Source: Thermoplasmata archaeon (lineage in GTDB: Archaea > Thermoplasmatota > Thermoplasmata > RBG-16-68-12 > JAFNFQ01). Taken from it: a stretch of DNA of 56,996 nucleotides. Location: assembly GCA_041489255.1 (NCBI GenBank), contig JBGPQV010000020.1:1-56996 (forward strand), read 5' to 3'. The position numbers and the translations under genes were made by a program. Positions 6,001 through 37,648 of the stretch are shown here, in pieces; the stretch's first letter is position 1, and each line of letters begins with the position of its first letter. The notes under the pieces are model-generated. The model saw only the letters and a program-made list of their open reading frames with translations, had not been told where the DNA came from and made no database searches.

Positions 6001-9000
6001 TTCGCAAGGGTGTCGAGACATACATTTGAGGAACCGTACGCGAACTCAGTCGCAGGCCGATCGGCATCCGGACTCCGGACCTTCGAGAGACGGCCATCCG
6101 CGTCGTACTCGTATCGGATCGTGCGGTCGCCCTGCGAAATCGTCGTGACATGTCCATAAGCCCACGTGAAATGTACATCGCGCCTGGCGTCTCCGAGGGT
6201 GTCTCGAATGTAGTCAATATCGTGATAGCTATCGTACACCACATCAATCAGATTCCCTTGCAGGTCTTGGATATAGTCCAAGAGGTATGCCTGGCCCGTC
6301 CCTGCAAAGTTCGAGACGAGCCTGTAGCGAATACCCGCAGAGTTGAATAAATCGAACTCGTATTGGTTGACAATGGTGAGTGTGAATTGCTCGCCTTGCT
6401 TATTCTCGAAAATCCCTCTGGAATCGAAGTTGATATAATACGCTTGTCCGTCCCATAAGTGAAGGAATGGCAATCGAATCGAAGGCAGGTTCAGGCGCCA
6501 GCCCGGTCCGAAAGCCCTGTAACCGTCTTCTGTGTAAAGATATGGACGGTCTACACCCCCACTGGAGACAAAAAGCGTGGGCGGTCGATATACGCGCGAG
6601 ATTGAAACATCAAGTCCGCGACCAGGGAGGAACAGGTCCGTTTGCCTGATTGTGAGCTGGCCATTTCCTGGAGAGATGAATTGCTCCAGTTGCTGGAAAT
6701 AGGATTCATACGGGGAGAGCCCCTCGCGGCTCCATGTCTCCCCAAGCCCCGCTCCAGTCGCAGCAGAGAGTGGAAGCGACGCGAAGCGGACTTCGCAGTC
6801 TCCGAAATTATAGCCTACGCTCACATCTATAGTCCATACGAGGGTGGCCATGCGAATGGACTGACGAGCCGCGCTAAGGAACGTTGGATGCTTCATCTCC
6901 ACCATAATTCTCTCACTGTCAAGCCATCCGACATCCGTCCTCCTCTTGTGCCAAATATCGAGGTTACGGCTCGGGTCATAAGTTGAGTAGTATCCCCAGA
7001 AAATGTGGATGTTATTGTCAAGGTCTACCGAGATGGTCGGCGAATTGACGAACTGTGTGTAGTCCACGACCTGATAGGAGCCACTGTATGGAGTGCTCAA
7101 GGTTGCGTACCCCAGGGTACCATCATGTCCCAATCGGGACACATAAGCAATATGAACCACGTCGTTTGAATCGACCGCAGCACTCCATTGTGTTTCCTTG
7201 TTCACATTCTGGCGAAGACCGATGTTCAGAATCTGCGGTCCCTGTTGAGGCAGCCATCCGTTCGCGGTGTAGTCCCTCCAGCGAATGGACGAGGAGGTGT
7301 AATGAGCCGAGACAACGCGGAGCTGGCCAGCCGAAAGCGGGATAAGGCTAATAGCCTCCCGGCCGTCAGCGGGAATCTCCGTGGGCCATTCACCAATCTG
7401 GGTGAAGCTGGAACCCCCGAGAATCGTCGAGCGGAATATGCGGATGTGGGCGGTACCGGGTGGAACGGGGTCATGAATGAAGACTCCGCCGCACCAGAAG
7501 AATCCGTCTGTGCCAATGGCAACTGAAACCGGCATTTTCGATTTCTCGCCGGCGGAATAAGTATCATACACCAACGAAACAGAAGGCCAGCTTATTCCGT
7601 AATCACCTATGGAGCCCAACAGGAAATACATATCCATCCACGTCGGATCAAGCAAGCACAGCGCTACGGATGACCCGACCTGATCCACGTCGAAGGATAC
7701 TGGCGAGATACTGAGCCCAACAGAGGATACGCCCGCCCAAGTCTTCCCGTCTCGGGATGAAGTGTAGGCGATGTCTGAGCCAGTATTGAAGAAAACCCAG
7801 TATCTTCCGTTCGCTTCGAATGTTTTTCTCTGCGTGGAATATGATGTGGCCATGTAGCTGTGAGAACGGGCGGCTGTTGATGGGTCCAGGTAGGATACTC
7901 CGAACGGGAACTCAACCACTATGCCCGGATAGGGTTCTCCATGAATAGCGACCGGACCCGCCAGCATCTGGCCAATGCCGACATCCGCCCAGTCAAAACG
8001 GACGCGTTCCAGCCATTGCCCGGGATCGCCTGATTCGCCAACATCTGCCCTGAGCAGCGGCGTATCGAGGGTTGTGAGCTGGGAGAATCCCCCGAAGTCC
8101 GTTACTGTATCATCCTCTGTCTGCACAAACGTATTCCTCGTTTGAGATTTCCATGTCAGACGGTAACTGCTTATCGTCGAGTTCCATGACTGCTGGAAGT
8201 CTACTGTGATTTTCACGGGTGACGATTCGTTGAACACGTAGGTCATTGTGACGTTGCCTTGATTGATACTGTCGATGACTACATCGTAGCGACTCTGGAA
8301 GAATGAGTCGTTCCAAGCTTCAATTCTGGAATCAGAAATATTCGAAGTCGGTGTCGTTTCGAGGATGAAAGTGCTCGCTGAAATCTGTTGGAGGCCGGTC
8401 TGATCACTCAGTTCGAGCATGTGAGGATCCCTTTTGTTGAAGGAGTAGTTGCCATCGCGCGTGATATAGACGATTTGATCGGTGAAGTTGGTGGCAAATG
8501 GGGAGAAATCGCCTGACGCAGGTGTGGAGCTCACCACGCCGGGAGAGCGGAAGATGGCATCCACGTTACCTTCCGGAAGACTCGGCGTGACATGAACGTC
8601 GATCCTCAAGACATCCAAAGTCGCGATTCCTTGTACAGTGTCGTCAGGAGTGTCCACTTGGGCATCCCACAGTCGCACGACGGGGGATCCTTGGTTGATC
8701 TCTGTTTCATTGAGTGGGATTGGGTCGAACCACTGGTCGACATCCGAATTGCATATCGCGACCGTTCTCCATGCGGAGGGGTAGGCACCACCTTGGCCCA
8801 CCTGAACGAGCACGTTTTCCGAGCCCGGGCTGAGTCGGCTGCATTCGACGACCAAAAACGTCGATTCGCCGAGTTGCGAAACACCTGACCATGAGAACCG
8901 GATTTCCAGGGCAAATTCCGGATTGTAGACGGCATCGATTTTCGTCTGCATCTGCGTTACGCGGTTATCCGGTGAGCAGTCGACGCATCGGACTCCGACT

Positions 9001-9740
9001 TTCAGGTTGTTGATGTCCGTGGAGGTCCATTCAGAACCGGTAATCGGGTTCTTGGCGTCCGTCCTGCTGTACCGCACATATGAGGTCGTCGTACTCTGTG
9101 TCGCCCCGTTGTTGTAGCTTGAGTCTCCCACTTTGACATCTATTGCGACGGAGGCGGCCTGGCTCGAGGTCTTCTTGACCGCAGCAGACGATGTCACCGT
9201 GAAATCGTCGACGTCAGGGGGATCGGTGAGGCTTGGATTCTGCATCGTCACCCCCACGCGATTTCCGTTTGTGTGGCCTTGCCTGCAAGTCGCATCCCCG
9301 TCATGAGTATCCGCCCCATCGTCTAGCTCGTCCCAAGGTGTTGCGTCCGTAGAACACGGCGTCCCCACAGCCCAGCCGTTCACGTCTGTCCCATCGGGTA
9401 GTAGAACGAGACCTAACTGATTCGTTGGGCTTCTGTCCACCTCCCTATAGGAGCAACGAGCATCATCCGACTCGTTGAGGTCAGTCCGATTGCCCCCGCA
9501 ATTCCCGCCGGTCAAAGTGCCATTAATCAGCGACTGGGATGTGGGCAGGTAGTGTTCGACGGACCCTGATTGGCTTTCGCTGTCAGGTCCTGAAGAAGTC
9601 ATCGTCCCGCTATTCACCGGTGGTCGGGGTTCCGTTCCACCTCCCGAGATCGGGTCCGCGGCCACAGGTCCCACCAGTGGCGAGAATACAGTCAACAACA
9701 TCGCCAAAGCTACACATACGCATGTAATGCGTCCAAGCAT
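1..9740 (-). CDS. Giant secreted RHS/YD-repeat protein (at least 3246 aa; 3' end beyond the left edge), probable polymorphic toxin or adhesin
   Basis: Translated by hand from ATG 9740 (GGAGG upstream; in-frame TGA at 9744-9746 just before it). N-terminal signal peptide MLGRITCVCVALAMLLTVFSPLVGPVAA-DP. DUF6531-like segment ISPGNGQLTIRQTDLFLPGRGLDVSISRVY...FGPGWRL at ~6480-6680. Many YDxxGR/N repeats. RHS core YYHQDNMGHVRVMTD...TDYRPFGE...PYTYIG at 1-140. The ORF track lists no stop-terminated ORF in this frame below 9744, consistent with an open frame to the edge. Confidence 0.93.
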   Translation of the reverse strand, partial: MLGRITCVCVALAMLLTVFSPLVGPVAADPISGGGTEPRPPVNSGTMTSSGPDSESQSGSVEHYLPTSQSLINGTLTGGNCGGNRTDLNESDDARCSYREVDRSPTNQLGLVLLPDGTDVNGWAVGTPCSTDATPWDELDDGADTHDGDATCRQGHTNGNRVGVTMQNPSLTDPPDVDDFTVTSSAAVKKTSSQAASVAIDVKVGDSSYNNGATQSTTTSYVRYSRTDAKNPITGSEWTSTDINNLKVGVRCVDCSPDNRVTQMQTKIDAVYNPEFALEIRFSWSGVSQLGESTFLVVECSRLSPGSENVLVQVGQGGAYPSAWRTVAICNSDVDQWFDPIPLNETEINQGSPVVRLWDAQVDTPDDTVQGIATLDVLRIDVHVTPSLPEGNVDAIFRSPGVVSSTPASGDFSPFATNFTDQIVYITRDGNYSFNKRDPHMLELSDQTGLQQISASTFILETTPTSNISDSRIEAWNDSFFQSRYDVVIDSINQGNVTMTYVFNESSPVKITVDFQQSWNSTISSYRLTWKSQTRNTFVQTEDDTVTDFGGFSQLTTLDTPLLRADVGESGDPGQWLERVRFDWADVGIGQMLAGPVAIHGEPYPGIVVEFPFGVSYLDPSTAARSHSYMATSYSTQRKTFEANGRYWVFFNTGSDIAYTSSRDGKTWAGVSSVGLSISPVSFDVDQVGSSVALCLLDPTWMDMYFLLGSIGDYGISWPSVSLVYDTYSAGEKSKMPVSVAIGTDGFFWCGGVFIHDPVPPGTAHIRIFRSTILGGSSFTQIGEWPTEIPADGREAISLIPLSAGQLRVVSAHYTSSSIRWRDYTANGWLPQQGPQILNIGLRQNVNKETQWSAAVDSNDVVHIAYVSRLGHDGTLGYATLSTPYSGSYQVVDYTQFVNSPTISVDLDNNIHIFWGYYSTYDPSRNLDIWHKRRTDVGWLDSERIMVEMKHPTFLSAARQSIRMATLVWTIDVSVGYNFGDCEVRFASLPLSAATGAGLGETWSREGLSPYESYFQQLEQFISPGNGQLTIRQTDLFLPGRGLDVSISRVYRPPTLFVSSGGVDRPYLYTEDGYRAFGPGWRLNLPSIRLPFLHLWDGQAYYINFDSRGIFENKQGEQFTLTIVNQYEFDLFNSAGIRYRLVSNFAGTGQAYLLDYIQDLQGNLIDVVYDSYHDIDYIRDTLGDARRDVHFTWAYGHVTTISQGDRTIRYEYDADGRLSKVRSPDADRPATEFAYGSSNVCLDTLANKYLLRSTKFPTGGSMEYCYKKAYVGTEAFTYVVTKQSTFDRGRVPLKSVGMDWTFLDGRVTYAKFTYSDSQNRGSESYLFGDGTFPGSTHIVRDAGNNELRRTVTFLGSDGAPARGVVYEGGSTSESTSTVSSYDDWGNLVYSKDAIGRETVSSYENTDSAGFLRRPASVDQTASGLVQFSDFEDRQMGQWQASGLGSIEFDYSNFYRVAPSMLIKSTSSEAEAAVLQLSAPLNEGTYSFVVSPGESNQFHRIILYSSGGVALMFAFDEGKMGSESPDGWDPIADYVAGNWYRIAFSVRQDDYDIYINGFLMRQGVKRFAQAQGAITTVKLITYPVSTLRVAETAVHGSESIRISNLAKGQWATLVDPWTGLFASDFVEDYGADEVILEMPPNSSPKAVLTVYDSDGSELLQRPGLYFRGDQYTFWPPREFQPMIKTRSGFLTQGDTPFWVDEYPAPNEPRDDQDGWHWVEYPFPPSGTQSHYSPPVAPGWHQHSIYYKNPPTYLEVSPDDVIIQYVYIPEGSVPSRIDLALGTPSAYYTARWGKSAEVEGVMAGPLPSKTNGWSMLLARASDIGITSTRYFSCAKYRVRGGAAFWDITTVDDELSKFKVRVQGLRPGQLVKAFSGDGWLMDQLTAEDSTVDLWIYYFGSRTAFPISAFFRVYDVDGTTIEYESPIFDEVWPGDVFAYSRPQSPYSTPTNTRNHRGLLASISWTNKSLDDVVRLDMETPSLAHSPSGASSLRDSSGLGNDAWITGTVDAAGVFGRAREFRGDGSGDYLRIPYSSTIRPRRQMTASFWLWVDAFPSNTYDMVYPLALGTIDDDTVAWQFSLRYSLSGWVIDFTTYLTTNPETPCVYASSHVIPGLDWLPTGEWIHVAGTFDGRSQHLYVDGNDLGWQVVSSPQGFCEMPRDLLVGYTHQTGKTLDGRIDEVVVTSRALTATEVAALRRGQYPTAIRTMNILDTAGVAIGSYTRNSTFVLRQYSPNDANGNIVETIGPSGEHYSFEYGAAFNSAYVTATSGMRTDTATEEVLPPNSNGARNDWTVMPGCDNELNEWQCVDESPADGDLTYIQGYGLATRSLFGFYDTGVSGDRISYVEIRVTARAGSTPGVGQVASRLLLLIGTEESEPFGLGTSYSTMTFRLYANPSTGMTWTKSEVDNLEAGVEVGFVNDAAGILVTQIMRLVRRVAGTVVSTSYDYDFTTGRLRWEQDAEGARTDYGYDANGRVTTVTLPPDRMGVRYTITNAYDDPGSSVTITNERGYKSKRYYDGIGRLIRVERLNSDSGMTVYSTEYYKDDWRDQLVWYRTAEGMVYDKQYDFFSRPTRITRPDGTFVKITYDDLVNTVTNEVYESNGATIRQKVVETYDEVGQLLQSREYKDATVTYVATLAYDHMGNVIFVKDQKGTTYQSYDEWGNRIRVDYPDGGFETFKYDEVGKLSQKRDRSENVATFGYDSLGRMTTLADDVGTIAYTYDKNGNVKMAAEGSMSVSYDYDLRQRLLRETSQFDVATYQFNFDYDPAGNIAKITYPDTSVVNYLYDEFDRVTSVTGYASGFTYDKDDQLRYFDLSNGLRTWYGYDSLGRMTGLKVYRESSSTTSSFILRPMGDASVQWSDYPSAGANYEKVDDTSLDYDASYVYANSVGKKDLYGLTDWQAPQGASIESVDLTVVARVTQRQIEELASINLVLRINGVDYPSPAIPLRTTYAVIGFRWTTNPATGQVWTQAAVNALIAGVQVNYVDVGWIRASQVYVTVRATSTTPSEGRLEMTWLPDAASNIRTSAKCSAWTNGLCSSWTNYANNYDLLGRLTSSTGPWGTLGWTYDEVGNRLTQTEGSVATSYQYGVYNRLNSYQSGMQQPVSFTYDNNGNILTRSQSGGDSWSYTFNARNELTQVMKNAQTLATFTYDPTGQRVKSVEGGTTTHFAFAGGQVLFEKNPTGQTTKYVTAGGLRIAKIIGSSTTYYHQDNMGHVRVMTDASRATIFQTDYRPFGEMYNPSGAEPYTYI

Positions 9741-9745
9741 TCTTC

Positions 9746-25324: not shown

Positions 25325-26284
25325 ATGCGCAGAGAGATCGTCTCGACAGTCGCGATGGCCTGCAGCATCGTCATCTCCCAGAGTGTCGCCCTGCTGCTCG
25401 CCCCGTTCTTCATCGAAGCCGACGCCACCGCGTTCCCGGACCCGAACAACGCCGCGAACCCCATCATATACGTCATCCTCATCCTCGCCTTCACCGCCCT
25501 CATACTCTTCATCGTCAAGAAGCGCAGGGAGAACATCTTGAAGTACATCATCCTCGGCTCGATGTTCCTCTCGATGATCTTCGTCTTCTACATCCCAGCC
25601 CTGTTCGGCCTCTACCCATTCGTCGGCGACCTTGCATTCAACCTAGCCCTTGTGCTGAGTTTGGTGGTTTCTGGAATCCTGACATTCGCCCTCTTCAAGT
25701 ATCCTGAATGGTACGTCGTGGACGCCGTCGGAATCTCGGTGGCCGCGGGGGTGACCGCCATAATGGGCATCTCGTTCACGATCTTCCCCACGCTCATCCT
25801 ATTGATACTCCTGGCCGTCTACGACGCCATCTCCGTCTACAAAACGAAGCACATGGTGACCCTCGCGGATGCCGTGGCGGCTGAGAAGCTTCCGATACTC
25901 CTCGTCATCCCGAAGAAGCTCGATTACTCCTACAAGGATCAGGAGAGCATCAAGAAACAGATTTCATCTGGAGAGGAGAGGGAGGCCATGTTCATGGGTC
26001 TCGGAGACATGATTATACCCGGTGTGCTCGTGGTCTCGGCCCTCGCCTCCAATGCTGACAAGCTGTCGACCCTGGTTTTCGGAATCCCCGGCCCACTCAT
26101 CGTCTCCATCGGGACGCTCATCGGGGGCCTCGTGGGCTTCGCTGTCCTGATGAAGTTCGTGATGAAGGGCAACCCGCAGGCGGGTCTGCCGCTGCTCAAC
26201 TCGGGAGTCATTATGGGCTACTTCGTCACGTACTACCTCGTGTTCCAGGAGCTTTCCTTCGGCATCAGGCTGGGATGGTTCTGA
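25325..26284 (+). CDS. Presenilin-family intramembrane aspartyl protease (PSH)
   Basis: About nine TM segments, AVYDAISVYKTKHM (YD), MGLGD (GxGD) and PQAGLPLLN. Confidence 0.95.
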   Translation: MRREIVSTVAMACSIVISQSVALLLAPFFIEADATAFPDPNNAANPIIYVILILAFTALILFIVKKRRENILKYIILGSMFLSMIFVFYIPALFGLYPFVGDLAFNLALVLSLVVSGILTFALFKYPEWYVVDAVGISVAAGVTAIMGISFTIFPTLILLILLAVYDAISVYKTKHMVTLADAVAAEKLPILLVIPKKLDYSYKDQESIKKQISSGEEREAMFMGLGDMIIPGVLVVSALASNADKLSTLVFGIPGPLIVSIGTLIGGLVGFAVLMKFVMKGNPQAGLPLLNSGVIMGYFVTYYLVFQELSFGIRLGWF

Positions 26285-26904: not shown

Positions 26905-27000
26905 GCCAGCTCGGCCGGTCAGTTTTCGCGACTTGACACTTGACATGTCTAGATTTGGCTTATATGAGCTCAGAGCAGTCATGAAGTGAAGGTGGACGAA

Positions 27001-30000
27001 ATGTCCGATGAACCTAAAAGGCGGGCGGCCCTGCGCAGACAGAGACAGTCGTTTTTCGGGAAAATCATCGTGTTCTGCACGATTGCGGCGGTGATGGGCA
27101 GCGGTCTCGTCGCCTACAACACGTCGCGTTTCATCCTGACCGACAGGAACAACGTGACGGCATACATCCCGGACACGATCCTCACCGATGCTCCCGGCAG
27201 CGCCCTCGTGATGCTGACAGACAGACACGGCGCCCCCCTCGCGGGGGAGCCTGTGACGGTGGAGGTCACACGAGATGGCAACCTGGTCTGGACGGAAACA
27301 GCGATGACAGACGAGGGTGGTGTCGCAACCCCGTCTTTCACGGGACTGTCTCTCACCGGGTCGTCGGAGGTTACAGTCAGGGGGGCCGGAGAGGTCCTGA
27401 CGAAGAAGGTCACTGTGAAGACGACCACGCGCATCTTCCTGCAGACGGACAAGCCGATCTACCAGCCTGGCCAGGTCGTCCACATACGCACGCTCGCCTT
27501 TTCCGGCACGTCTCCGACGGTCTCTCTGCAGAACGTCACACTGGAGATATCCACGCCAGAGGGCGATAGGATATTCCGCAAGATCCTCGCGCCTGATGAA
27601 TATGGCATAGCCAGCTATGACTACCAGCTGGGAAGTAGACTCCCCTTAGGACTGTACAAGATCAAGGCGGCAGTAGGATCGGAGAGCACTGAGAAGGCGT
27701 TCGGCGTACAGAGATACGTCCTGCCCAGGTTCGTGATCGAGTTCAGGGACATGCGCGGTTGGTACGGATTCGCTGACGACATCGACGGCAGGGTCTGCGT
27801 CGATTATGTCTTCGGCGAGCATGTCCAGGGGACCGCGACCCTGAGCGTGAGAGCGTTCGTGGGCGACTGGCATGACGTGACAGTTGTCACACGAAGCCTC
27901 TCAAACGGCTGCATGAGTCTGCACGTTCCCGCCACAGACCTGCCGCATGACGGCGCCACGGGATATGCCGAGCTCAAAGCCACGGTGACAGACACGGCCG
28001 GGCACTCCGAGAGCAAGACGAAAGATATCCCCCTGTCGAGCACGCCGATACTGATCACGGCCCTCTCGGACACGAACGTGCCGGGCGCCCAGTCCAACTA
28101 CTACATCGTGGCGCGATGGCCCGACGGGACGCCTGTCTCATCCGCGCAGGTCAGATCCTATTCCAACGGCTACAGGGACACCACTACCGATGTCAGAGGC
28201 GTCGCGCTTGTCTCTTTCACATATCAGGGTCAAGACTCGCTCAGCATCACCGTCACGAAGGGCAATTACTCGAGCACCCTCAGCACCGGCTTGCGCTCGG
28301 AGGCTGGCATTAAGGTTGTCGCGGATAAAGCTCATTACGAAGTCGGCGAGACCGCGAACTTCCAGGTCTACTTCTCTGGCAGCACACTCACCAACTGGGC
28401 ATACTACGAGGTCGTCGCGAGGGATTTCGTAATCATGACCGGCCGCGTCACGCTGACCGGCGGCACATCCTCGTTCTCCATGCAAATCGATAGGCCCATG
28501 GTCCCGCTCGCGGAGGTCCGCGTCTACAAGACCCTCTCAGACCTGACCGTGTCCAAGGACAACGTCGTGTTCACGGTCGGCACATTCTCCGATCTGAGGG
28601 TGAATATCACCGCGGACAAGCAGGAATACCGCCCGGGAGAGGATGTGAGATTGGACTTTGCGGTGAGCGATGGCGCTCAACCGACAGCGGCCGCGCTCGG
28701 AATCGCGATAGTCGACAGAGCGGTGTACGAGGTCGATGAAAGGTTCAAGGGCCTCGAGGACGCGCTCAACGGAAACCATGGCGACGTCTCCTATGACTCG
28801 CAGGTGATTGACTATGTGTACGGGGAGAGCTCGATTCCCCCGGACGCAGGAGCACCGCTCGTCGTGTCGCCTGAAGCCGCCGCCGAAGGGCAGATGCAGA
28901 GCACACTGCCGGTGAAGCGGCAGATGGCCGCGCAGGCCCAGGACTCGGCGGTATCGTTCTTCTGGTCAGCACTCCTGTTCGTCGGTCTGACGGGCTACGT
29001 CGGGCTCGTCGTCCTAGGCATCCGCAACAGGAAGTACGCCGCAGTGGTCGTTGCGTTGGCGGTCATGATTCCCGCGTTCGCCGCCCTAGGCTACTTCGCG
29101 CAGAGGAACTACACCTCATTCCCATCTGACTCCGGTTTCGGCGGCGCTCTCCTTGGAAGTGGCAGTGGCGGCGCAGGCATGGGATTTCCGACTGCGGGTA
29201 GTGCACCGGTTCTCCTTGGTGGCGGCAATGAGCGGTGGTTCTATGGCGATCAAGGCGGGCAGACAGGGATTACTGGCGGGTTGATAGCCGCGCCCGCGAG
29301 GGTCAGGACATTCTTCCCCGAGACATGGTATTGGAATCCCTCGCTGATCGTCGGCCCGGACGGCGTGGGCAACGTGACCCTCCCGGCTCCAGACTCCATC
29401 ACCACCTGGATGGTCGATGCTGTTGCCTCGACGAAGGATGCGAAGTTCGGCAGCGGCAGCTCGGAGGTGCGTGTCTTCCAGGAGTTCTTCGTGGAGCCTG
29501 ACATCCCCGTTGCGGCTGTTAAAAACGACACCTTTGATCTTGATGTCTCGGTGTTCAATTACGTGAGCGACCTGAACGTCACGAACGATGTGACGGTGCA
29601 GTTGATGCCTGACTCCTGGTTCACGATTACGGGACCCTCGCAGAAGTCTCTCTCACTTCCTCCTTTCAGCGTCCTGAGCACCTACTTCACGATCACCGCC
29701 ACGGAGATAGGAGAACACAATGTCACCGTCCTAGCGGGAAATGCCAGGATAAGCGACGCGGTCGTCAGAGTCATCCGAGTGGACCCGCGCGGCTCGCCTA
29801 CCGATGAGACGTTCGGCGGGCGCCTCACAGGCAGTGAAACGAAGTCGGTGACTCTCGTTCTGCGAACCGACAGGATCCCGGGGACGGAATCAGCATCCCT
29901 GAGGATACAGCCGTCCATGGCCGCCGCCGTCCTCGACGGCGCGGACAACTACATACATTATGTCTCCGGGTGCGGCGAACAATCGATGTCGACCCTCAAC

Positions 30001-31473
30001 ATCGATGTCCTCGCGTTCAGGCTTGTCTCGGAGGGTACCTCTGACCAGAGGATGCTCGGGCTGGAGCAGATAGTCAACCAGGGGGTACAGCATGAGATGC
30101 AGTTCCTGGTGCAGGCGCAGAACGGTCAGGGGCGGGGCATCGTGTGGTTCCCCGGGGACCAAGACGCGCACCCGTGGCTGACCTCATGGGGCCTGATCAC
30201 ATTCAAGGACGCAATCGATGCGGGATTCGGCGTCGACGAGAAGGTCCTCACCCATATGCAGTCCTGGCTGGGCTCCATCCAGAACTCCGACGGCAGCTGG
30301 CAGTTCCCGGAATGGGGTATCTACGAGTTCAACAACCCGATATTGAAGAGCAAGCAGATTGCGACGACCGCGTACATAGCCCGTGCCCTGATCTATTCTG
30401 GATATCCCGCGGACGGCCCGGCGGTTCAGAAGGCCCTGGGCTACGTGCAGTCGAAGGTGCACGACAGCTGGGACGACCCCTACATGCTCGCGCTGTCGCT
30501 CATCGTGCTTGTCGATGGAGATGGGCCATCAGCTCTCCGAAGCGATATCGCGGCACGTCTCGTCGAGCTCAAACAGGTGGACAACGGCACGGCTTACTGG
30601 AAGTCACCGAGTTCCCTCCTCTCCGATGGCAATTACCGCTGGGGCGGGTACTTGGGAGCCTACGACAGCAGGACGAGCGAGACGACCGGCTATGTGGTCA
30701 TGGCCCTGCAAAAGCAGAGCGGGATCACGGGAGACGTCTCGGCGGGCGTGGAGTTCTTGCTCTCCAGACGCAACGAGTTCGGAGGATATCTGTCGACGCA
30801 GGACACCGTCGTGGCCTTGCAGGCGCTCCTCGCGATCGGAAGTGGAAGCGCTGCGGACAACCTTGACGTGACGGTTGAGATTGGCGGGGCGACTGTTGGC
30901 TCCGTCCACTTCGACCAGACTTCGAGGGACATCACCTACATGCTCGACATCACGAGCCACCTCGACACGGTCACTCTCGTGAACATCTCCTCGAGCGGCG
31001 CGGGCTCCGTGGTCTACCAGGTGGTGCTGAGCCAGTACATCCCCTGGGATGAGGTCGTACAGCCGCCATGCGAGCTTTGCTTCGATCTCTCCTACAGCGA
31101 CACGGCTATCCAGGTCGGTGAGAGAATCACCGCCAATGCCGAACTCACATACAACGGGGAAGCGCCCCAACTCAAGATGGTCCTCGTGACGATCAAGTCG
31201 GGAGTCGGCTTGACGTTCGACGCCGCGGCGCTGGACGCCATGGTCTCCAACCAGACGTATGCCAATGGGACAATCTCGCTCTACGAGCTCGGTGAGAACT
31301 CGGTCGTCCTGTACCTGCAAAACATCAACAAGGGAGAGACTCTCCGCTTCAGCTTGATTCTGATCGGCTCGACGCCATTCCTCGGCACGATCGAAGGCTG
31401 CCAGGCCCAGGACCTCTACGACCCTGGCTTGGTGACCGTGATACAACCGGTCCAGATGACCGTCACCCGCTAG
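27001..31473 (+). CDS. Alpha-2-macroglobulin / thioester-containing protein, membrane anchored
   Basis: QTDKPIYQPGQ (MG2), YVLPRF, RTFFPETWYW, PDSITTW, VFQEFFV, thioester GCGEQ (CGEQ at 29971-29982), QNSDGSW and GGYLSTQDTVVALQAL. Start is ATG 27001 (AGGTG upstream) or GTG 26986. Confidence 0.95.
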   Translation: MSDEPKRRAALRRQRQSFFGKIIVFCTIAAVMGSGLVAYNTSRFILTDRNNVTAYIPDTILTDAPGSALVMLTDRHGAPLAGEPVTVEVTRDGNLVWTETAMTDEGGVATPSFTGLSLTGSSEVTVRGAGEVLTKKVTVKTTTRIFLQTDKPIYQPGQVVHIRTLAFSGTSPTVSLQNVTLEISTPEGDRIFRKILAPDEYGIASYDYQLGSRLPLGLYKIKAAVGSESTEKAFGVQRYVLPRFVIEFRDMRGWYGFADDIDGRVCVDYVFGEHVQGTATLSVRAFVGDWHDVTVVTRSLSNGCMSLHVPATDLPHDGATGYAELKATVTDTAGHSESKTKDIPLSSTPILITALSDTNVPGAQSNYYIVARWPDGTPVSSAQVRSYSNGYRDTTTDVRGVALVSFTYQGQDSLSITVTKGNYSSTLSTGLRSEAGIKVVADKAHYEVGETANFQVYFSGSTLTNWAYYEVVARDFVIMTGRVTLTGGTSSFSMQIDRPMVPLAEVRVYKTLSDLTVSKDNVVFTVGTFSDLRVNITADKQEYRPGEDVRLDFAVSDGAQPTAAALGIAIVDRAVYEVDERFKGLEDALNGNHGDVSYDSQVIDYVYGESSIPPDAGAPLVVSPEAAAEGQMQSTLPVKRQMAAQAQDSAVSFFWSALLFVGLTGYVGLVVLGIRNRKYAAVVVALAVMIPAFAALGYFAQRNYTSFPSDSGFGGALLGSGSGGAGMGFPTAGSAPVLLGGGNERWFYGDQGGQTGITGGLIAAPARVRTFFPETWYWNPSLIVGPDGVGNVTLPAPDSITTWMVDAVASTKDAKFGSGSSEVRVFQEFFVEPDIPVAAVKNDTFDLDVSVFNYVSDLNVTNDVTVQLMPDSWFTITGPSQKSLSLPPFSVLSTYFTITATEIGEHNVTVLAGNARISDAVVRVIRVDPRGSPTDETFGGRLTGSETKSVTLVLRTDRIPGTESASLRIQPSMAAAVLDGADNYIHYVSGCGEQSMSTLNIDVLAFRLVSEGTSDQRMLGLEQIVNQGVQHEMQFLVQAQNGQGRGIVWFPGDQDAHPWLTSWGLITFKDAIDAGFGVDEKVLTHMQSWLGSIQNSDGSWQFPEWGIYEFNNPILKSKQIATTAYIARALIYSGYPADGPAVQKALGYVQSKVHDSWDDPYMLALSLIVLVDGDGPSALRSDIAARLVELKQVDNGTAYWKSPSSLLSDGNYRWGGYLGAYDSRTSETTGYVVMALQKQSGITGDVSAGVEFLLSRRNEFGGYLSTQDTVVALQALLAIGSGSAADNLDVTVEIGGATVGSVHFDQTSRDITYMLDITSHLDTVTLVNISSSGAGSVVYQVVLSQYIPWDEVVQPPCELCFDLSYSDTAIQVGERITANAELTYNGEAPQLKMVLVTIKSGVGLTFDAAALDAMVSNQTYANGTISLYELGENSVVLYLQNINKGETLRFSLILIGSTPFLGTIEGCQAQDLYDPGLVTVIQPVQMTVTR

Positions 31474-31530
31474 CACACAGGCCGGCAAATACGTTAAATA
31501 GAGGGGCCAGCCGTGATTGCACGGGTGGCG

Positions 31531-33441
31531 ATGAAGACGGAGACAGAGGGCACCTTCCGGATTACTGTCAACGACAAGATACTCGTGCATCTGCTCGAGT
31601 ACACCCGCTACAATGATCGGCCGGAGGTGCCGAGGGAGATCACTCAGCAGGGAATCTCGGAGATCGTCGGCGCCAGGCGCTCTCACGTCTCGCTCGCGCT
31701 CTCGACCCTGAAAGAACGTTCCCTCGTCGAGGAGAAGACCGTAAGGGTCACTGACGAGGTCAGGAGGAGGAAGGGCTACTTCCTCACCTCCAAGGGCTTC
31801 GAGACCGCGAAGGGTCTCGCCGAGAAGTACCAGATGTTCAAAGTCAGGATCGAGGAGGCTGGCGGCGTAAAGGAGGCCATGATTTCCGAGCTGCCCCAGC
31901 TACTCGGAGAGAAGTACTACCTCGTTGACGTCCTGTGCTGCCTCAACAAGGATGGCACTCTCGACATTGCAGAGTTGACCGGTCAGAAAGCCGAGGCAAT
32001 CCAGGAAGACAAGACGAAAGCGCCCCTGGCTAGGGCGATGGCCGCATGCCCGATGTGCTCGACGAGGGTCGAGTTCCCGTACGACAACGAGGCGATACTT
32101 ACTGTCGTGTGTGGGTCGTGCGGCAACACGTTCAGGACTTCTGTCGGCTCCCCGGTCTATGCGCCGCAATCACAGGTCCAAGTCGAGATGACGGCGCCAG
32201 TCGCAGCGACTCAGAAGAGAGGCACTGAGACCGGGCTGATGACCCTCCTCGCGGGATTGGCGATATCGGTTGCAGTCTCGCTGATCATGTTGACTTCGCT
32301 CTTTTTCATCTCATGCGGGCTGCTTCTCGGTGCATTTCCATTGCTGCTGGTCTCCATTTTCTCCCTGAAAAAACAGGAGGATCGCGCGCAGGTCGCATTT
32401 GGTGCCTCCATGCTGTTTGCAGCCCCGTTTTTCGTCCTGTCCGACAGCCTCAGGGTCTTCTGGGTCGGGTTGCAGTTCGCAGGGACGTTCGCGCTCGCGG
32501 CCGCTGTCGCGAATCTCGTCATTAAGTCTCTTCGGCTCAGGCTGACCATGGCGGGGGCGTACGCGATTGCCGCAAGCCTCGTCCCGGCCGCGGTACCCTG
32601 GGGGATTCCTCTCGGATTCGGTCTCCTTATCGGGTGCGCCGCATTGATGACCGCCATCATGTTCACTGCGGAGATCAAGGAAACTCGCGAAAAGGACGCT
32701 ATTGCGGTAGCCGGTTTCGTCGCTGCCTTCGGGGCCGTCTCATACATGCATTGGATGACAGTGCCGACCTGGGACATGCTGGCCATAGCCAGGATCGCGC
32801 TGGTCACCGCCACTCTGTACGCCTTTGCCGCCTTCGCAAAACCGGTCGCGGCCAAGACGCGCGCCGAGATTGTGTCCGTTCTCGGTGTTTTCCTCATTGC
32901 ACTGGGGACGTTCACGGCGGTGGCATCCCCCTTCATCGGCTGGCAGTCCGACCTCGCCGCGTACCTGGCTGTGTTTGGCGGTGGTGCGGTATGTGCGGCT
33001 AGAATGATCCGGAAACAGGATGATCTGTGGGCCCAAGTCTGCATGGGATCCGGCTTTTTCCTCGCCGTGATTAGTGTGTCTTTGATCGTTGCTAGGTCGT
33101 CCACGCTTTCGCTTCCATGGTTGGTGTCCCTCGGCCTCTGGCTCGCCGTGGGGCTTTCGCTGTGCGCGATTCGATTCGCCCGCGAAGTCACGGAATGGAT
33201 TGTTTCGGTCAGGGCAGGCACCATTGCCGCCGCCGGAGCATCGGTCATCTTGGCGGGAGTGTACATGCTGATGCTGGGGTTCGGGGCAGAGGGGGCGGTC
33301 GAGCTCGCCCTCGGAACCCCACTTGTCGGTTACGCGGTGTTTCGGAGCGGGGCGCCGTGGGTGCCGCGGCTGGCGGTCAGCTCATTGCTAATCGCGACCG
33401 TGGCGGCAACCTGGTATGCGGTCGTGATTGGACTCGGTTGA
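31531..33441 (+). CDS. Winged-helix + zinc ribbon + polytopic membrane domain protein (putative membrane-bound regulator)
   Basis: ITQQGISEIVGARRSHVSLALSTLKERSLV...YFLTSKG wHTH; CPMC...CGSC; then more than 10 hydrophobic helices. Start is ATG 31531 or GTG 31513. Confidence 0.85.
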   Translation: MKTETEGTFRITVNDKILVHLLEYTRYNDRPEVPREITQQGISEIVGARRSHVSLALSTLKERSLVEEKTVRVTDEVRRRKGYFLTSKGFETAKGLAEKYQMFKVRIEEAGGVKEAMISELPQLLGEKYYLVDVLCCLNKDGTLDIAELTGQKAEAIQEDKTKAPLARAMAACPMCSTRVEFPYDNEAILTVVCGSCGNTFRTSVGSPVYAPQSQVQVEMTAPVAATQKRGTETGLMTLLAGLAISVAVSLIMLTSLFFISCGLLLGAFPLLLVSIFSLKKQEDRAQVAFGASMLFAAPFFVLSDSLRVFWVGLQFAGTFALAAAVANLVIKSLRLRLTMAGAYAIAASLVPAAVPWGIPLGFGLLIGCAALMTAIMFTAEIKETREKDAIAVAGFVAAFGAVSYMHWMTVPTWDMLAIARIALVTATLYAFAAFAKPVAAKTRAEIVSVLGVFLIALGTFTAVASPFIGWQSDLAAYLAVFGGGAVCAARMIRKQDDLWAQVCMGSGFFLAVISVSLIVARSSTLSLPWLVSLGLWLAVGLSLCAIRFAREVTEWIVSVRAGTIAAAGASVILAGVYMLMLGFGAEGAVELALGTPLVGYAVFRSGAPWVPRLAVSSLLIATVAATWYAVVIGLG

Positions 33442-33929: not shown

Positions 33930-34843
33930 TCCTCGTCTCGCTCGTCCTCAGGGACTTCCAGCTTCTCCCACCGCGCTTCCTCTTTCTCTGGCTCCTTCCA
34001 GAATCGCTCGACATATTTCTGGTAGTTCTTGACGATCGTATCGGCCAGACTGGGCGACACGAGGAATTTGAGCTTCCCGCCTTTCCTCAGTTTGATCGTG
34101 ACAACCATCACATTTCTCAGACCCCTCATGTGGGATTTCGGCTCCTCCGCTATGGCGTCCCAGGAGAGTTCCACCACATTCTCCTTCGCCCCGTACCGCA
34201 GATGCAGGTCGTCCGCCTCGATCGTCCCGCCATAGACCGGTCCGACCCCTTTGAGGAAGAACCAGCCCTTGTGCGCCTCCACCTTATCCTTGATCGCCTT
34301 CCTGAACTTCCCCCAATTGCCGATCAATTCCTTCGGCACGATGAGCGGGTCGGCCTCGGGGTCCTTGAGTGTCATGACGAAGTAAGGGAAGTTCAGTCCC
34401 GCCTCGTTCGGGTAGAAAGCGGCAATCTCGCTGGAGAACACGAACCTCGGAGGGCGGCCGTGATCGAAGTCGTCCTCCGAGCCTATGGGCAGTCTTACGC
34501 CGAGCTCGTAGACCCTCAGCGGCTTCACCGCCCGCCTGATCCGCCTCGTGTCGCCGACGAAGAGCGCTGCCCAATACAGGAGCGCCCCGGCGAGAAGAGC
34601 GCCGAGCGCCTGGACGTACAGGGGGAATTGCATGACATAAAAGACGAACACGAGGATTATCACGGCGAATCCGATGAAAGCCGCGATAGCCAAGATGTCG
34701 CCCACGATGTAAGTCCGGCGGACGCCACGGGATTTCTTGTTCTTGCCTTCTCCATAGACGATCACACCCCTTTCGGGATGGATTGCCGGCTTCGCACCCG
34801 CTGCCGGCGCCTCGGTCTTCGCCTGTGCTCCAGCGTCCATCAC
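33926..34843 (-). CDS. Hypothetical membrane protein (2 TM plus soluble domain)
   Basis: 305-aa GC3-biased ORF with two hydrophobic helices; overlaps the tldE stop, suggesting translational coupling. Confidence 0.75.
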   Translation of the reverse strand: MMDAGAQAKTEAPAAGAKPAIHPERGVIVYGEGKNKKSRGVRRTYIVGDILAIAAFIGFAVIILVFVFYVMQFPLYVQALGALLAGALLYWAALFVGDTRRIRRAVKPLRVYELGVRLPIGSEDDFDHGRPPRFVFSSEIAAFYPNEAGLNFPYFVMTLKDPEADPLIVPKELIGNWGKFRKAIKDKVEAHKGWFFLKGVGPVYGGTIEADDLHLRYGAKENVVELSWDAIAEEPKSHMRGLRNVMVVTIKLRKGGKLKFLVSPSLADTIVKNYQKYVERFWKEPEKEEARWEKLEVPEDERDED

Positions 34844-36153
34844 TCAGCCGACCTCGTGAAACCAATCTTCGTGGCGAGAGCGTAGGGCATGAACGATGGC
34901 ACTGCGACCTCGCCCCACCATTCGACCTCATGCGTCTCCCTGCTCAGGGCCTTCACGTTCTGCCAGAGGTGTAGCAAGTTGTCTGTCAACCTGACGTCCT
35001 TCCACGTCCCGACTATCTCACCCTTCTTCACCCTGAAGATGCCGTCGCGCGGAATCGTGCTGAAATCTCCGGTCGTGTAGTTCTGGTACCTCGTGTACCA
35101 CGTGTTGGTTACGTAGACGCCGTCCTTGCACTCCTCGAACAGCTCCTCCGTCTTCCAGTCGCCGGGTTTCAACACGACTTGATGCGGGTCAGGCCCGACG
35201 AGCCCGGCGTTCGCTGTCGTCTTCGTCTTGAAGATCTTGGCGGTGGACGTGTTGTGCAGGTGTGTCTTCAGTATCCCATTCTGGACAATCGCCGTCCTTC
35301 TCGCAGGGACTCCTTCTGCATCGAACCTCTTCCGACCCCGCCCATCCGCCGTGGCGTCGTCATAGATTGTGACGGCACTGGACGCGACCTTCTTTCCTAT
35401 CTTCTTGCCGAACGGCGACAGGCCTGCCATGACGGCGAAAGCCGAGTTCCTGATGGCCATCTGGTCCGCCATGGAACCCAGGAAGAGCGGCTCGAAGATG
35501 ACGTCGAACTTGCCCGCCTCGCCCCGCTTAGGATCCTTCGCCATAGCGGCAATCTGCCCCGCCTTCTCTCCCGCCTTCTCCGGCCTGAACTTCGTGAAGT
35601 GCGTCGCGCACTCGACCCCGTGTCCACTCGACTCTGGCCCCGCCATGGCCCTGATTGAGAGGTAGAGGTCAGCCCTTCTGTCCTTCGCCTCGACGCCGTT
35701 CGAGGTGGCTAGGTAGTGCGTCTGGTCGTTCTTGAGGAAACTTCCTGCCGTCTCCTTCGCTCCTTCGGCTAGCGCGGCATTTACGGCGGAGTAGACGAAG
35801 TCCGAACCCTCACTGAGCGAGGTTATCCTTTTGTCAACCGCCAGAGGCGGGTACTTGAACGGGCCCTTGGCGATGCCGCCGTATTCCGGGTTCTTCTGAG
35901 ACACCTTCGCGATCCTGACGACCTTCCCGACGGCCTCGTCACTCTTGCTCAGATCCCTGATGTCCGTCATGACCACACGCTTCTCGTAGACTATGAAAAG
36001 CGACGCCGCCTGTTCCCTCCACGAGTTGGTGATGTCGATCTGGTTCTGGCTGAACCTTATTTGGAAGCTGTTGGTCTCGTAGACGTCGGCGACGGCGTCC
36101 TCGCAGCCGAGGCTCAAGGCCTTCTTGACGATCCTGTTGGCGTTGTCTTCCAT
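34840..36153 (-). CDS. TldE/PmbA family protein
   Basis: FDAEGVP, IVQNGIL and GDFST; no HExxxH; follows tldD. Confidence 0.92.
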   Translation of the reverse strand: MEDNANRIVKKALSLGCEDAVADVYETNSFQIRFSQNQIDITNSWREQAASLFIVYEKRVVMTDIRDLSKSDEAVGKVVRIAKVSQKNPEYGGIAKGPFKYPPLAVDKRITSLSEGSDFVYSAVNAALAEGAKETAGSFLKNDQTHYLATSNGVEAKDRRADLYLSIRAMAGPESSGHGVECATHFTKFRPEKAGEKAGQIAAMAKDPKRGEAGKFDVIFEPLFLGSMADQMAIRNSAFAVMAGLSPFGKKIGKKVASSAVTIYDDATADGRGRKRFDAEGVPARRTAIVQNGILKTHLHNTSTAKIFKTKTTANAGLVGPDPHQVVLKPGDWKTEELFEECKDGVYVTNTWYTRYQNYTTGDFSTIPRDGIFRVKKGEIVGTWKDVRLTDNLLHLWQNVKALSRETHEVEWWGEVAVPSFMPYALATKIGFTRSAE

Positions 36154-36157
36154 GTGA

Positions 36158-37570
36158 TCACCTCAAAGCTATGTTGCGAAGGCGCATCGTCGGCCCGCCG
36201 AATGCAGCGTCGAGGGCCTGGGTCGGGTCGCTCTTCCCGCAGAAGCCCGCCTCGAACTCAAGGTCCTTGCCAACAGCGTCCACCGCGGACCAGAAAGCCG
36301 GGGTGGTCACTTCTAGAACGGTCTTGCGCACCGGGTGCTTCACCTCGCCGTTCTCTATGAGGTAGGCCTCTCGACCGACGTATTTCCCGTTCCACCTCTT
36401 GTCGTCGATGTTCCACTCCATGAACGACTTCATGTATACGCCGGACTTCACCTCTTCCAGCATCTCTTCGACCCCCCAGTCCTTCGGCTCCACGAATGTG
36501 TTCGCCATCCGCACGATCGCCTCGCGGTCATAGTTGGTCGCCCTCGCGGCGCCGTTGCTCCTGGTGCCGAGCTTCGCCGCCGTCTCGCGGTTCTGGAGGA
36601 ACTCGTTGATCCTGCCTTCCTTGTAAAGATACCTCCGGCGGGACTTGACGCCCTCATCGTCGTAGGCGTAGAAGGCGATCGCGTTGGCCAGAGTGGGGTC
36701 ATCCACAACGTTCACGGATGCACTCCCAACCTTCTTTCCGATCATGTCCGGAGTGATGAACGACTTGCCAGCCTGAGAGGCCTCCCTCCCGAGGATCCTG
36801 TCCGCCTCAGTCGGATGCCCGCAGCTCTCGTGAGAGGCAATCCCGCTCACCTGCGGCCCCACGACCAAGTCCATCTTCCCCTCTGGCGACTTCTTGCCTT
36901 TCTCGAGCGTCAGCTGCAGGCTCTTCGCTTCCTCGATGACCTTATCCATTATCTGTAACTCGTCGAGCGCTTCCCACCCGCCGCTCCATCCGTAGTTACG
37001 GTAGCTCTGCTCTGCGTCCCCCTTCCCCGCCACGGTGAGATAGTAGTAGAGCCGGATGCGCGGCGAATACGACTTGATCTCCGAGCCTTCGCTGTTGACG
37101 AACAGCTTCCTTATCCTGTTGTGGGACATGATGAACATCCTGGCGGGCATCTTCAGCTTCAGACCGAGCACGGCCTCGTCAAGTTCCACAAGGTCCCTTA
37201 TCTTCCGGTCGGTCGGGACGTCGGCGATCTTCACCTTCTCGGGGACGGACCACTCAGTCACCACAGTATCCTCTTTCACGAACGATATCGGGTCCTTCCT
37301 CGCGGCACCCTTCGCCTTTTTCATGGCGGAGTCGACCGCGTCGCGCACATCGCCCTTGTTGAGGCGGTTCGTAGAGGAGAACGCGAGTCCTCCCTTCGCG
37401 AGCACGCGGACGCCTATCCCGGTGTCCTCGGAGAAACCGAGCGCGTCGAGCACCCCGTTCTTCAGTATCATCTGCTCGCCAATCTGGTATTCGTGCCGGG
37501 CTTCAGCATAGCTGGCGCCCCTGCTCCTCGCATACTCGACGGCAAAATGGGCTAGGTCTTCCCCTGACAT
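36158..37570 (-). CDS. tldD: TldD family metalloprotease
   Basis: GIGVRVL, HESCGHPTEADR (HExxxH), YDDEGV, RMANT and CGK. Start trimmed to MSGEDL. Confidence 0.93.
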   Translation of the reverse strand: MSGEDLAHFAVEYARSRGASYAEARHEYQIGEQMILKNGVLDALGFSEDTGIGVRVLAKGGLAFSSTNRLNKGDVRDAVDSAMKKAKGAARKDPISFVKEDTVVTEWSVPEKVKIADVPTDRKIRDLVELDEAVLGLKLKMPARMFIMSHNRIRKLFVNSEGSEIKSYSPRIRLYYYLTVAGKGDAEQSYRNYGWSGGWEALDELQIMDKVIEEAKSLQLTLEKGKKSPEGKMDLVVGPQVSGIASHESCGHPTEADRILGREASQAGKSFITPDMIGKKVGSASVNVVDDPTLANAIAFYAYDDEGVKSRRRYLYKEGRINEFLQNRETAAKLGTRSNGAARATNYDREAIVRMANTFVEPKDWGVEEMLEEVKSGVYMKSFMEWNIDDKRWNGKYVGREAYLIENGEVKHPVRKTVLEVTTPAFWSAVDAVGKDLEFEAGFCGKSDPTQALDAAFGGPTMRLRNIALR

Positions 37571-37648
37571 GAGACCCATCTCCTTGGCGTTCTGCGAATG
37601 CATGCGGCGCATTAAACCTATGCCGAGATGGAGGGAGGCCGCTCTGTC

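Follow-up and report, generated by a model that had tools for sequence, protein, structure and literature searches.

What are two membrane helices doing in the middle of an alpha-2-macroglobulin (A2M)? This question is raised by a gene in the 56,996-nucleotide stretch of contig JBGPQV010000020.1 from a sediment-derived Thermoplasmata archaeon that was analysed here (the window), whose product belongs to the A2M/TEP superfamily of thioester proteins. At the position of the bait, the two helices form a predicted transmembrane hairpin. The superfamily is already known; the architecture, that is, a membrane hairpin at the bait position, is new. We favour the reading of a thioester protease trap at the cell surface, with its bait pinned to the membrane, that probably informs a transcription factor of an attack. 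This reading as a whole is held tentatively, with a chance that we put a little short of even.

By its domain content, the protein is a member of the A2M/TEP superfamily. Pfam finds the macroglobulin (MG) domains MG2 (residues 149-239, 7.9e-23) and MG3 (243-317), followed by A2M_BRD (442-582, 1e-17), A2M (780-862, 3e-20), and the thioester domain (TED), which is the canonical order. The segment ALGIAIVDRAVY comprises residues 570-581. The GCGEQ thioester motif (residues 995-999, nucleotides 29968-29982) is intact: G995, C996, G997, E998, and Q999 are invariant in all 44 aligned sequences. The identity and the thioester proposed in the original prediction are thereby borne out, and formation of the thioester bond is predicted from the motif. 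R774, F777, P778, E779, T780, and W781, where the conserved fold resumes, are invariant in the same 44 sequences. No match to PF07677, the C-terminal receptor-binding (MG8) family, was reported for this protein at E <= 0.01, and about 210 residues remain after the TED; this family is precomputed for many homologues having the hairpin and is also found in bacterial relatives. NCBIfam gave nothing beyond a sub-threshold chance match, and the PADLOC models matched neither this protein nor its winged-helix partner described below.

Residues 583-773 occupy the place of the bait between the two parts of the MG6 domain. In this protein, the interval consists of two disordered linkers and two predicted membrane helices (TM1 and TM2), the latter sitting in a 197-residue gap between A2M_BRD and A2M. 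The peaks of Kyte-Doolittle hydropathy, calculated in 19-residue windows, are 1.94 for the N-terminal anchor (residues 22-45), 2.13 for residues 656-681, and 2.31 for residues 682-706. The two helices, the RNRK loop between them, and the RTFFPETW string are all present where the original prediction had placed them, and so is the N-terminal anchor behind an Arg-rich segment. The Gly-rich stretch of about 65 residues claimed after the hairpin is 68 residues long and contains 19 Gly, or 28%, as compared with 9.4% in the whole protein. Across the family, this linker has 40-160 residues, with 15% Gly, 12% Asp, and 8% Glu. A single window with a hydropathy of at least 2.1 is unremarkable: it was reached in 706 of 2000 shuffles of the whole protein. 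Pairs of charge-free stretches of at least 20 residues, with a hydropathy of at least 1.9 and at most 10 residues apart, appeared in 7 of 5000 shuffles. Conservation across homologues is a stronger argument than these shuffles that the hairpin is beyond chance.

A model of residues 430-960 was built with AlphaFold2 from a 33-sequence alignment (mean predicted local distance difference test score, pLDDT, of 71.8). It contains helices at residues 640-680 and 682-709 with pLDDT values of 69-82. Low-confidence linkers (residues 586-639 and 710-765, pLDDT about 30-41) lie beside the helix pair, and well-formed beta domains are observed on either side of the whole insert. The model supports the prediction that the two segments behave as a transmembrane hairpin.

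The charges around the helices suggest how the protein is oriented. In membrane proteins, positively charged residues tend to remain on the inside, which is known as the positive-inside rule. Across the family, the hairpin loop has a median length of 4 residues and contains on average 3.2 Lys or Arg versus 0.18 Asp or Glu. Averaged over 117 proteins, the net charge changes from -1.4 over the 15 residues that precede TM1 to +3.0 in the loop and to -2.9 beyond TM2. An uncharged N-terminal hydrophobic stretch is present in 109 of 119 near-full-length homologues, with a mean net charge of +3.3 in the 15 residues before it and -0.9 after it (n = 109); the other 10 start inside this helix and look like short gene calls. 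Because of this charge pattern, the N-terminus should be inside, the first half outside, the loop inside, and the second half outside. This is the same arrangement of the two halves as in the original prediction.

Conservation of the hairpin was examined in a word-seeded homologue search, which gave 265 proteins at E <= 1e-3 among 8000 scored candidates. The best 120 of the 265 have identities of 33-94%, and their named sources are Thermoplasmata, Thermoplasmatota, and "Methanobacteriota" metagenome-assembled genomes. When the 300 residues before FPETW were scanned in these proteins and the query, exactly two uncharged hydrophobic stretches were found at the hairpin site in 117 of the 121. Two of the four exceptions have one stretch, and one has an unrelated third stretch; in the fourth, a long Ig-like insertion has moved the hairpin beyond the scanned range. 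The residues of the helices are variable; their position and hydrophobicity are kept. TM1 retains a YW...L...G pattern at the 50% level of the 44-sequence alignment.

A pattern scan with one genome per species returned 78 loci. In the Thermoplasmatota-type group, all 47 loci holding the region have at least one hydrophobic segment at the site, and 6 of these loci show no more than one at a threshold of 1.6; L043 and L044 are cut by contig ends, and L045, L046, and L048 do not have the region. The same scan found no such segment in any of 26 more distant A2M loci, drawn from Methanolobus and other Methanosarcinales, Methanoperedens, Hadarchaeota, Micrarchaeota, Planctomycetota, and Acidobacteriota. 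In a FastTree phylogeny of the region C-terminal to FPETW, from which the hairpin columns are excluded, one branch with a support of 100 separates 43 group members from these 26. The rows are labelled by group, and the contigs of L043 and L044 do not include the hairpin. After clustering at 50%, at least one stretch is present in 27 of the 28 representatives with the best scores, and at least two in 25; P0135 is without the motif. The more divergent representatives P0154 and P0155 likewise carry such stretches. The hairpin defines a sizeable archaeal clade and is not unique to this assembly. The gene is single-copy in its own genome (2.74 Mb, 96.5% complete) and patchy in the phylum: of the 401 genomes sampled, 31 have A2M matches at E <= 1e-20, including 22 with matches at E <= 1e-100, and 25 of 162 genera have a match.

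Membrane inserts at this site are found in bacteria as well. A profile of residues 430-960 recovered 1937 representatives at E <= 1e-30. Of the 123 representatives that come next in this list after the archaeal clade, 58 contain internal hydrophobic stretches, which lie between A2M_BRD and A2M. The bacterial inserts have 2-10 helices, typically 4-6 and up to about 10. For one of these proteins, P0137, 2345 relatives at E <= 1e-50 were found among 7999 scored candidates; in 120 of the 2345 that were listed, 97 have 4-6 stretches, and a GCFEQ motif is present in all 120. The source names of the bacterial group (e.g., P0137 and P0353) include Anaerolineae/Anaerolineales, Longilinea arvoryzae, Firmicutes, Poribacteria, and Armatimonadota. 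Other modules also occur at the bait site (P0142, P0160, and P0322): a YscJ/FliF ring-forming domain, a type II secretion pseudopilin-like domain (PF08334), and DUF4159. These bacterial proteins resemble the archaeal one in the Pfam order, in the helices between A2M_BRD and A2M, and in the intact thioester motif. They differ in having mostly 4-6 helices instead of 2 and, in some cases, a zf-HC2 domain; in the archaeal proteins, the tail is short and basic, and the winged-helix partner is a protein of its own.

In a FastTree phylogeny of 127 C-terminal regions with an arbitrary root, the archaeal hairpin clade (25 rows) is monophyletic beside a mostly bacterial group. Gains and losses of the membrane insert among the 127 proteins amount to 7-9 changes per state; with many weak forks, the order of events is unreadable. 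The hairpin protein seems to belong to a broader class of membrane-integrated A2Ms, which is apparently undescribed: no publication on the bacterial proteins was found in the literature searched. These results are consistent with the soluble bait that the original prediction ascribes to characterised A2Ms, but the databases contain many uncharacterised A2Ms having membrane inserts there. The earlier observation was thus correct and understated.

In some of the bacterial proteins, the cytoplasmic part suggests a link with transcription. A zf-HC2 anti-sigma finger starts 10 of 33 scanned bacterial A2Ms with inserts (P0142, P0200, P0152, P0161, P0165, P0192, P0219, P0233, P0244, and P0248), many of them picked for long N-terminal cytoplasmic parts, so that the ratio is not a frequency. 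In the metagenomic locus L080, a gene for an extracytoplasmic function (ECF)-type sigma factor (Sigma70_r2 and r4_2) ends 122 nt upstream of a gene (3193-8743) for such an A2M. In its product, zf-HC2 (22.4 bits, the cut-off being 22.2) is combined with a single membrane helix, MG domains, a two-helix insert at the bait, and a TED containing GCFEQ. Because the sigma gene lies directly upstream in this locus, the zf-HC2 proteins are considered to be candidate "macroglobulin anti-sigma factors". The archaeal protein itself has no match to zf-HC2, and only 21 residues precede its anchor: it may work like a zf-HC2 (ZAS-type) anti-sigma factor but is not a member of this group.

A separate regulator is encoded beside the archaeal gene. 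The downstream gene product (P0122) consists of a winged helix (residues 13-110), a CxxC...CxxC zinc ribbon (residues 179-207), a low-complexity linker, and about 12 membrane helices (residues 238-641; about 9-12 across related loci). The winged helix matches HTH_Crp_2 above the cut-off (8.4e-7), and HTH_Crp_2 is found in 20 of 25 family members. It lies in a region modelled by AlphaFold2 with pLDDT values above 90 (residues 20-160), and the VIA Z values to MarR-, PadR-, and ArsR-type chains are 10-12. On this evidence, the N-terminal domain is a winged helix of the MarR/PadR type, and DNA binding is predicted. For the membrane part, neither a Pfam family nor a match by Foldseek (E <= 0.001) or in the Atlas (at least 0.9) was found; searches of the PDB gave no match, and the VIA rows are at the level of helical bundles only. 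It shows no similarity to the 6-helix block of the bacterial proteins (hhalign probability of 4%). In the fusion of a cytoplasmic DNA-binding domain to membrane helices, P0122 resembles membrane-bound one-component regulators such as ArnR, BcrR, and ToxR/CadC. It is unlike them in its domain of about 9-12 helices without a Pfam, PDB, or Atlas match.

When flanking open reading frames were clustered with L001 excluded, this partner was the only broadly shared neighbour (27 loci including the window). Its position was counted in 43 related loci having 1500 nt or more of sequence beyond the A2M gene, and most queries for this count came from the same loci. The partner gene lies on the same strand and starts less than 400 nt after the A2M stop codon in 27 of them, and it is 514-4931 nt away in 4. 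In the phylum sample, with the best 150 of 548 matches considered, whole-profile matches to the partner are present in 14 of 22 genomes with a strong A2M match, and none was seen in genomes without one. In the other 8 genomes, one has an adjacent N-terminal fragment, six metagenome-assembled genomes (62-95% complete) have module matches only, and G090 has none. As a separate observation, the winged-helix module of about 145 residues often occurs in several copies per genome, in frames of about 350 or about 850-1100 residues; this family may represent widespread membrane-associated one-component regulators. In L016 (14844-18377) and L021 (3692-5473), the A2M with the hairpin is followed by a gene for a secreted beta-propeller protein (PF09826), not by that for the winged-helix partner.

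How might such a protein work? It would be built into the cytoplasmic membrane by three helices, namely the N-terminal anchor and the hairpin, with both large halves outside the cell and only the 4-residue basic loop inside. The two disordered linkers of about 55-70 residues beside the hairpin would be the likely protease-sensitive bait. In the A2M family, cleavage of the bait is followed by conformational rearrangement and capture of the protease by the thioester. Correspondingly, an external protease at the cell surface would cut a linker, whereupon the macroglobulin body would come free of its membrane pin and lose the restraint at MG6. A rearrangement of the A2M/C3 type would follow, and the thioester would then capture the protease covalently at the surface. 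A trap function of this kind is likely. According to the original prediction, bait cleavage would free the thioester half from all membrane anchors. This seems to hold for the covalent chain only, after a cut in linker 2, which would leave the C-terminal chain without a covalent anchor. In C3 and cleaved TEP1, both halves contribute strands to MG6 and the chains stay together. Release of the thioester half is therefore doubtful, and the cleaved complex would be expected to remain on the cell.

The change is probably sensed within the membrane, because the bait continues directly into the membrane helices. The hairpin, possibly together with the N-terminal helix, would contact the membrane domain of the partner; a contact of this kind probably couples bait cleavage to transcription, which the winged-helix regulator would adjust. 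The conserved winged-helix neighbour and the bacterial anti-sigma fusions are circumstantial evidence for the signal across the membrane that was suggested as a second outcome in the original prediction, though they do not amount to showing one. By analogy, these fusions make a signalling use of the architecture plausible. Signalling is an attractive function to infer for the archaeal protein, and it is the most conjectural step of the scheme.

Several observations weigh against a sensor coupled to transcription. The cytoplasmic loop of the hairpin has only about 4 residues; a signal would therefore have to travel from helix to helix inside the membrane. The partner is not found downstream in 12 of the 43 related loci, and G090, a 97%-complete genome with A2M, has no match to it. 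The winged-helix module is present in 235 of the 401 phylum genomes on other C-terminal parts, so that the adjacency could reflect an ordinary local regulator. The partner has a TATA-like element of its own (TTAAATA, 31494-31500) in the 39-nt gap, and co-transcription is therefore not assured. Its membrane part is poorly conserved (mean column identity of 23%), and a single-sequence search with this part gave 7 relatives only. On the bacterial side, the pairing of sigma and anti-sigma factors comes from one locus: in a metagenome scan with P0200, 47 of 50 full-length genes were insert-less A2Ms, and L080 was the sole example. The loci and the genome without the partner and the generic winged-helix module suit another explanation, in which the hairpin and the N-terminal helix hold a conventional trap flat on the surface of a cell without an outer membrane or periplasm. 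The hairpin would then be the counterpart of the ECAM lipid anchor or the CD109 glycosylphosphatidylinositol (GPI) anchor, and the winged-helix protein, without a physical link to the hairpin, would regulate the locus in an ordinary way. All structural evidence for an embedded hairpin fits such an anchor equally well. It is, however, difficult to see the reason for a second anchor exactly at the bait when 109 of 119 homologues already have the N-terminal one. The 4-6 or more helices of the bacterial relatives far exceed what anchoring needs, some of these relatives are fused to anti-sigma domains, and full-length partner matches were seen only in A2M genomes among the best 150 of 548 matches. 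We regard pure anchoring as possible but on the unlikely side.

The hairpin might instead serve biogenesis: as an internal signal-anchor, TM2 would set export going again for the second half of 800 residues, and it may be cut by signal peptidase to give two chains. A two-chain form is also produced by furin processing of C3, C4, and C5. TM2 indeed has the layout of a signal sequence, with RNRK as a basic n-region, a hydrophobic core, and small residues in AFAALGYFA. The inserted helices are mostly even in number (2 in archaea, mostly 6 in bacteria), as is required for export of both halves. A2Ms of similar length in Methanolobus, Methanoperedens, and Hadarchaeota, which are among the 26 hairpin-less loci, are nevertheless evidently made without such a device. 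The alignment contains no conserved small-x-small cleavage motif after TM2, and the conserved partner gene would be left unexplained. A role in biogenesis is thus considered improbable. Still less is to be said for the hairpin as an intramembrane substrate of a presenilin/signal peptide peptidase (SPP) homologue (PF06550, 7.4e-72), whose gene precedes the A2M start by about 700 nt on the same strand. This gene is near A2M only in L001 and in none of the 77 other loci; being confined in this way, the pairing reflects local gene order and not a conserved link, and we consider this role very improbable. That the hairpin is an artefact, arising from chimeric assembly, from two fused genes, or from a hydrophobic stretch by chance, has a negligible probability, although a single hydrophobic window of this height is common in shuffles. 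The paired arrangement was rare in shuffles, the same site is occupied in the homologues, and the gene is one uninterrupted frame with conserved domains on either side. In addition, an identical contig of the sediment metagenome run X4 spans 28192-29196, and a variant contig of the sediment run X7 spans 27973-29578. The latter differs by 155 letters over 1606 nt, and its sole length change is an in-frame loss of 3 nt in the Gly-rich linker.

Comparison with solved structures locates the trap pinned at its bait within the superfamily. CD109 is the best match by both sequence (8s3o, 1.2e-55) and fold (9fx3, Foldseek 1.7e-22). The closest solved chains by sequence are CD109, A2ML1, and human A2M, with TEP1, C4, and C3 also matched. 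The model of residues 430-960 matches the folds of CD109, C4, C5, A2ML1, TEP1, and A2M (Foldseek 1.7e-22 to about 1e-15). The sequence match with CD109 breaks before the hairpin and restarts at residues 755-774 or so, and that with C3 resumes at residue 774. As the alignments stop and resume in this way, the hairpin is considered to occupy the bait/anaphylatoxin position. Both CD109 and the archaeal protein are thioester proteins displayed at the cell surface. CD109 has a C-terminal GPI anchor and a soluble bait, whereas the anchors of the archaeal protein are the N-terminal helix and the hairpin within the bait interval. The order of elements is parallel to that in C3, C4, and C5: the first part of MG6, a linker, a helical insert, a cleavage-prone stretch, an acidic segment, and FPE(S/T)W. 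The insert of C3 is a soluble four-helix anaphylatoxin, which is released; that of the archaeal protein is two membrane helices. No evidence of convertase-type activation was seen in the archaeal protein.

The bacterial traps ECAM/YfhM and SaA2M are periplasmic lipoproteins with a soluble bait and a pbpC neighbour. They are described as membrane-tethered and presumably monomeric thioester traps, thought to protect the envelope from invading proteases (PMC4498604). The archaeal protein shares with them the membrane tethering and the type of trap and differs in its partner gene, the winged-helix protein. Salmonella A2M (4u48) gave a weak match, restricted to the MG2 region (1.7e-6). The bMG Pfam families of type I bacterial A2Ms (bMG3, bMG5, bMG6, and bMG10) were not found in the archaeal protein, and its N-terminus is a basic tail followed by a 24-residue hydrophobic helix with no lipobox cysteine motif. 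Archaeal A2M homologues with a TED and CxEQ have been discussed as possible components of immunity or conflict systems (Makarova et al. 2021, PMC8416519). As reported there, they are mainly from Halobacteria and Methanomicrobia and have signal peptides and other neighbours; the main text of that work never uses "Thermoplasma", "hairpin", or "bait". For Vampirococcus, two "large membrane proteins" with A2M domains are mentioned as possibly defensive, and the accessible text does not describe their architecture (PMC8080830). The words "transmembrane", "archaea", and "prokaryot" do not occur in a 2026 review of A2M (PMC12939704). The proposal that the hairpin is undescribed is in line with the literature searched, in which no description of membrane helices in an A2M bait region was found, subscription journals lying outside its coverage.

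The sensor reading might be extended to prokaryotic membrane-integrated A2M/TEPs in general. These would be protease-sensing receptors, in which the bait is wired to membrane helices: the thioester would neutralise an attack, and a transcription factor would be informed of it, this factor being a separate winged-helix membrane protein in Thermoplasmatota and a fused anti-sigma domain with its ECF sigma factor in bacteria. We regard this generalization as speculative and rather unlikely to hold in full. If true, complement-like proteins would have an old, undescribed role in transmembrane signalling. In the textbook view, A2M and complement proteins are soluble or peripherally tethered traps that undergo a large conformational change set off by a free bait loop; in the present protein and many uncharacterised bacterial relatives, the bait interval is predicted to pass through the membrane. 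As the bait would be mechanically pinned, the trigger can work differently, and the conformational switch may have an intracellular readout. Thioester proteins would thereby be connected with ECF-sigma or one-component signalling, fields so far unlinked. Such a system would also be a model of how wall-less or single-membrane microbes of protein-degrading sediments sense and survive extracellular proteases. The archaeal proteins are closer to animal CD109, A2M, and TEP than to E. coli ECAM, which bears on the origin of the animal family.

The coordinates of the features are collected in Table 1. The A2M gene has an alternative in-frame ATG start at 27001, and the partner gene has one at 31531. 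The element TTATATGA may be the promoter element of the A2M gene.

Table 1. Features of the A2M locus in window coordinates (aa, residues of the A2M protein)
Feature	Position	Strand	Basis or remark
Presenilin/SPP homologue	25325..26284	+	PF06550; two genes upstream of A2M start
TATA-box-like element TTATATGA	26960..26967	+	19-26 nt 5' of GTG; read from sequence
A2M/TEP gene	26986..31473	+	1495 aa, GTG start, single open reading frame
Cytoplasmic N-terminus, Arg/Lys-rich (aa 1-21)	26986..27048	+	5 Arg and 2 Lys in 21 residues
N-terminal transmembrane anchor, predicted (aa 22-45)	27049..27120	+	Kyte-Doolittle peak
Outer half 1, MG domains to A2M_BRD end (aa 46-582)	27121..28731	+	Pfam
Linker 1, predicted disordered, candidate bait (aa 586-639)	28741..28902	+	AlphaFold2 pLDDT 33-41, model residues 157-210
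Helix running into TM1 (aa 640-655)	28903..28950	+	AlphaFold2 helix, model residues 211-251, continuous with TM1; conserved A...YW pattern
TM1, VSFFW...VLGI (aa 656-679)	28951..29022	+	Kyte-Doolittle, homologues, AlphaFold2
Putative cytoplasmic loop RNRK (aa 680-683)	29023..29034	+	sequence; family charge pattern
TM2, YAAVV...GYFA (aa 684-705)	29035..29100	+	Kyte-Doolittle, homologues, AlphaFold2
Linker 2, Gly-rich, predicted disordered, candidate bait, C3 alpha'NT position (aa 706-773)	29101..29304	+	composition; pLDDT about 30
RTFFPETW, resumption of conserved fold (aa 774-781)	29305..29328	+	alignment
Thioester domain TED_complement (aa 981-1281)	29926..30828	+	Pfam 1.1e-31
Winged-helix membrane partner gene (P0122)	31513..33441	+	642 aa; Pfam, AlphaFold2, alignment of relatives

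The upstream genes of the window, including those for eIF2-beta, the presenilin/SPP-type protease, and a metallophosphoesterase, are common only to the near-identical locus L001. The latter two were considered as partners of A2M and rejected, since L001 keeps them and the 77 other loci do not. Neighbours encoding a diphthamide synthase and a lysine-2,3-aminomutase-like protein, which occur in 9-10 loci of one subclade, were read as inherited gene order. A TldD/PmbA metallopeptidase pair near the locus (34840-37612, minus strand) is likewise common only to L001. At the start of the window, the minus strand of 1-9743 contains a stop-free frame of at least 3247 codons, which runs off the window start. 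It has Pfam matches to RHS repeats (2.5e-36) and Laminin_G_3, and the GC content of this region is 0.54-0.56 versus about 0.60 elsewhere; its product seems to be a giant protein of the RHS/YD type, either a surface protein or one similar to polymorphic toxins. Near the other end (53111-56785, plus strand), the window encodes a ribonucleotide reductase large subunit, which contains a LAGLIDADG-type intein-like insert (PF14528, residues 573-674) and a TSCPD domain.

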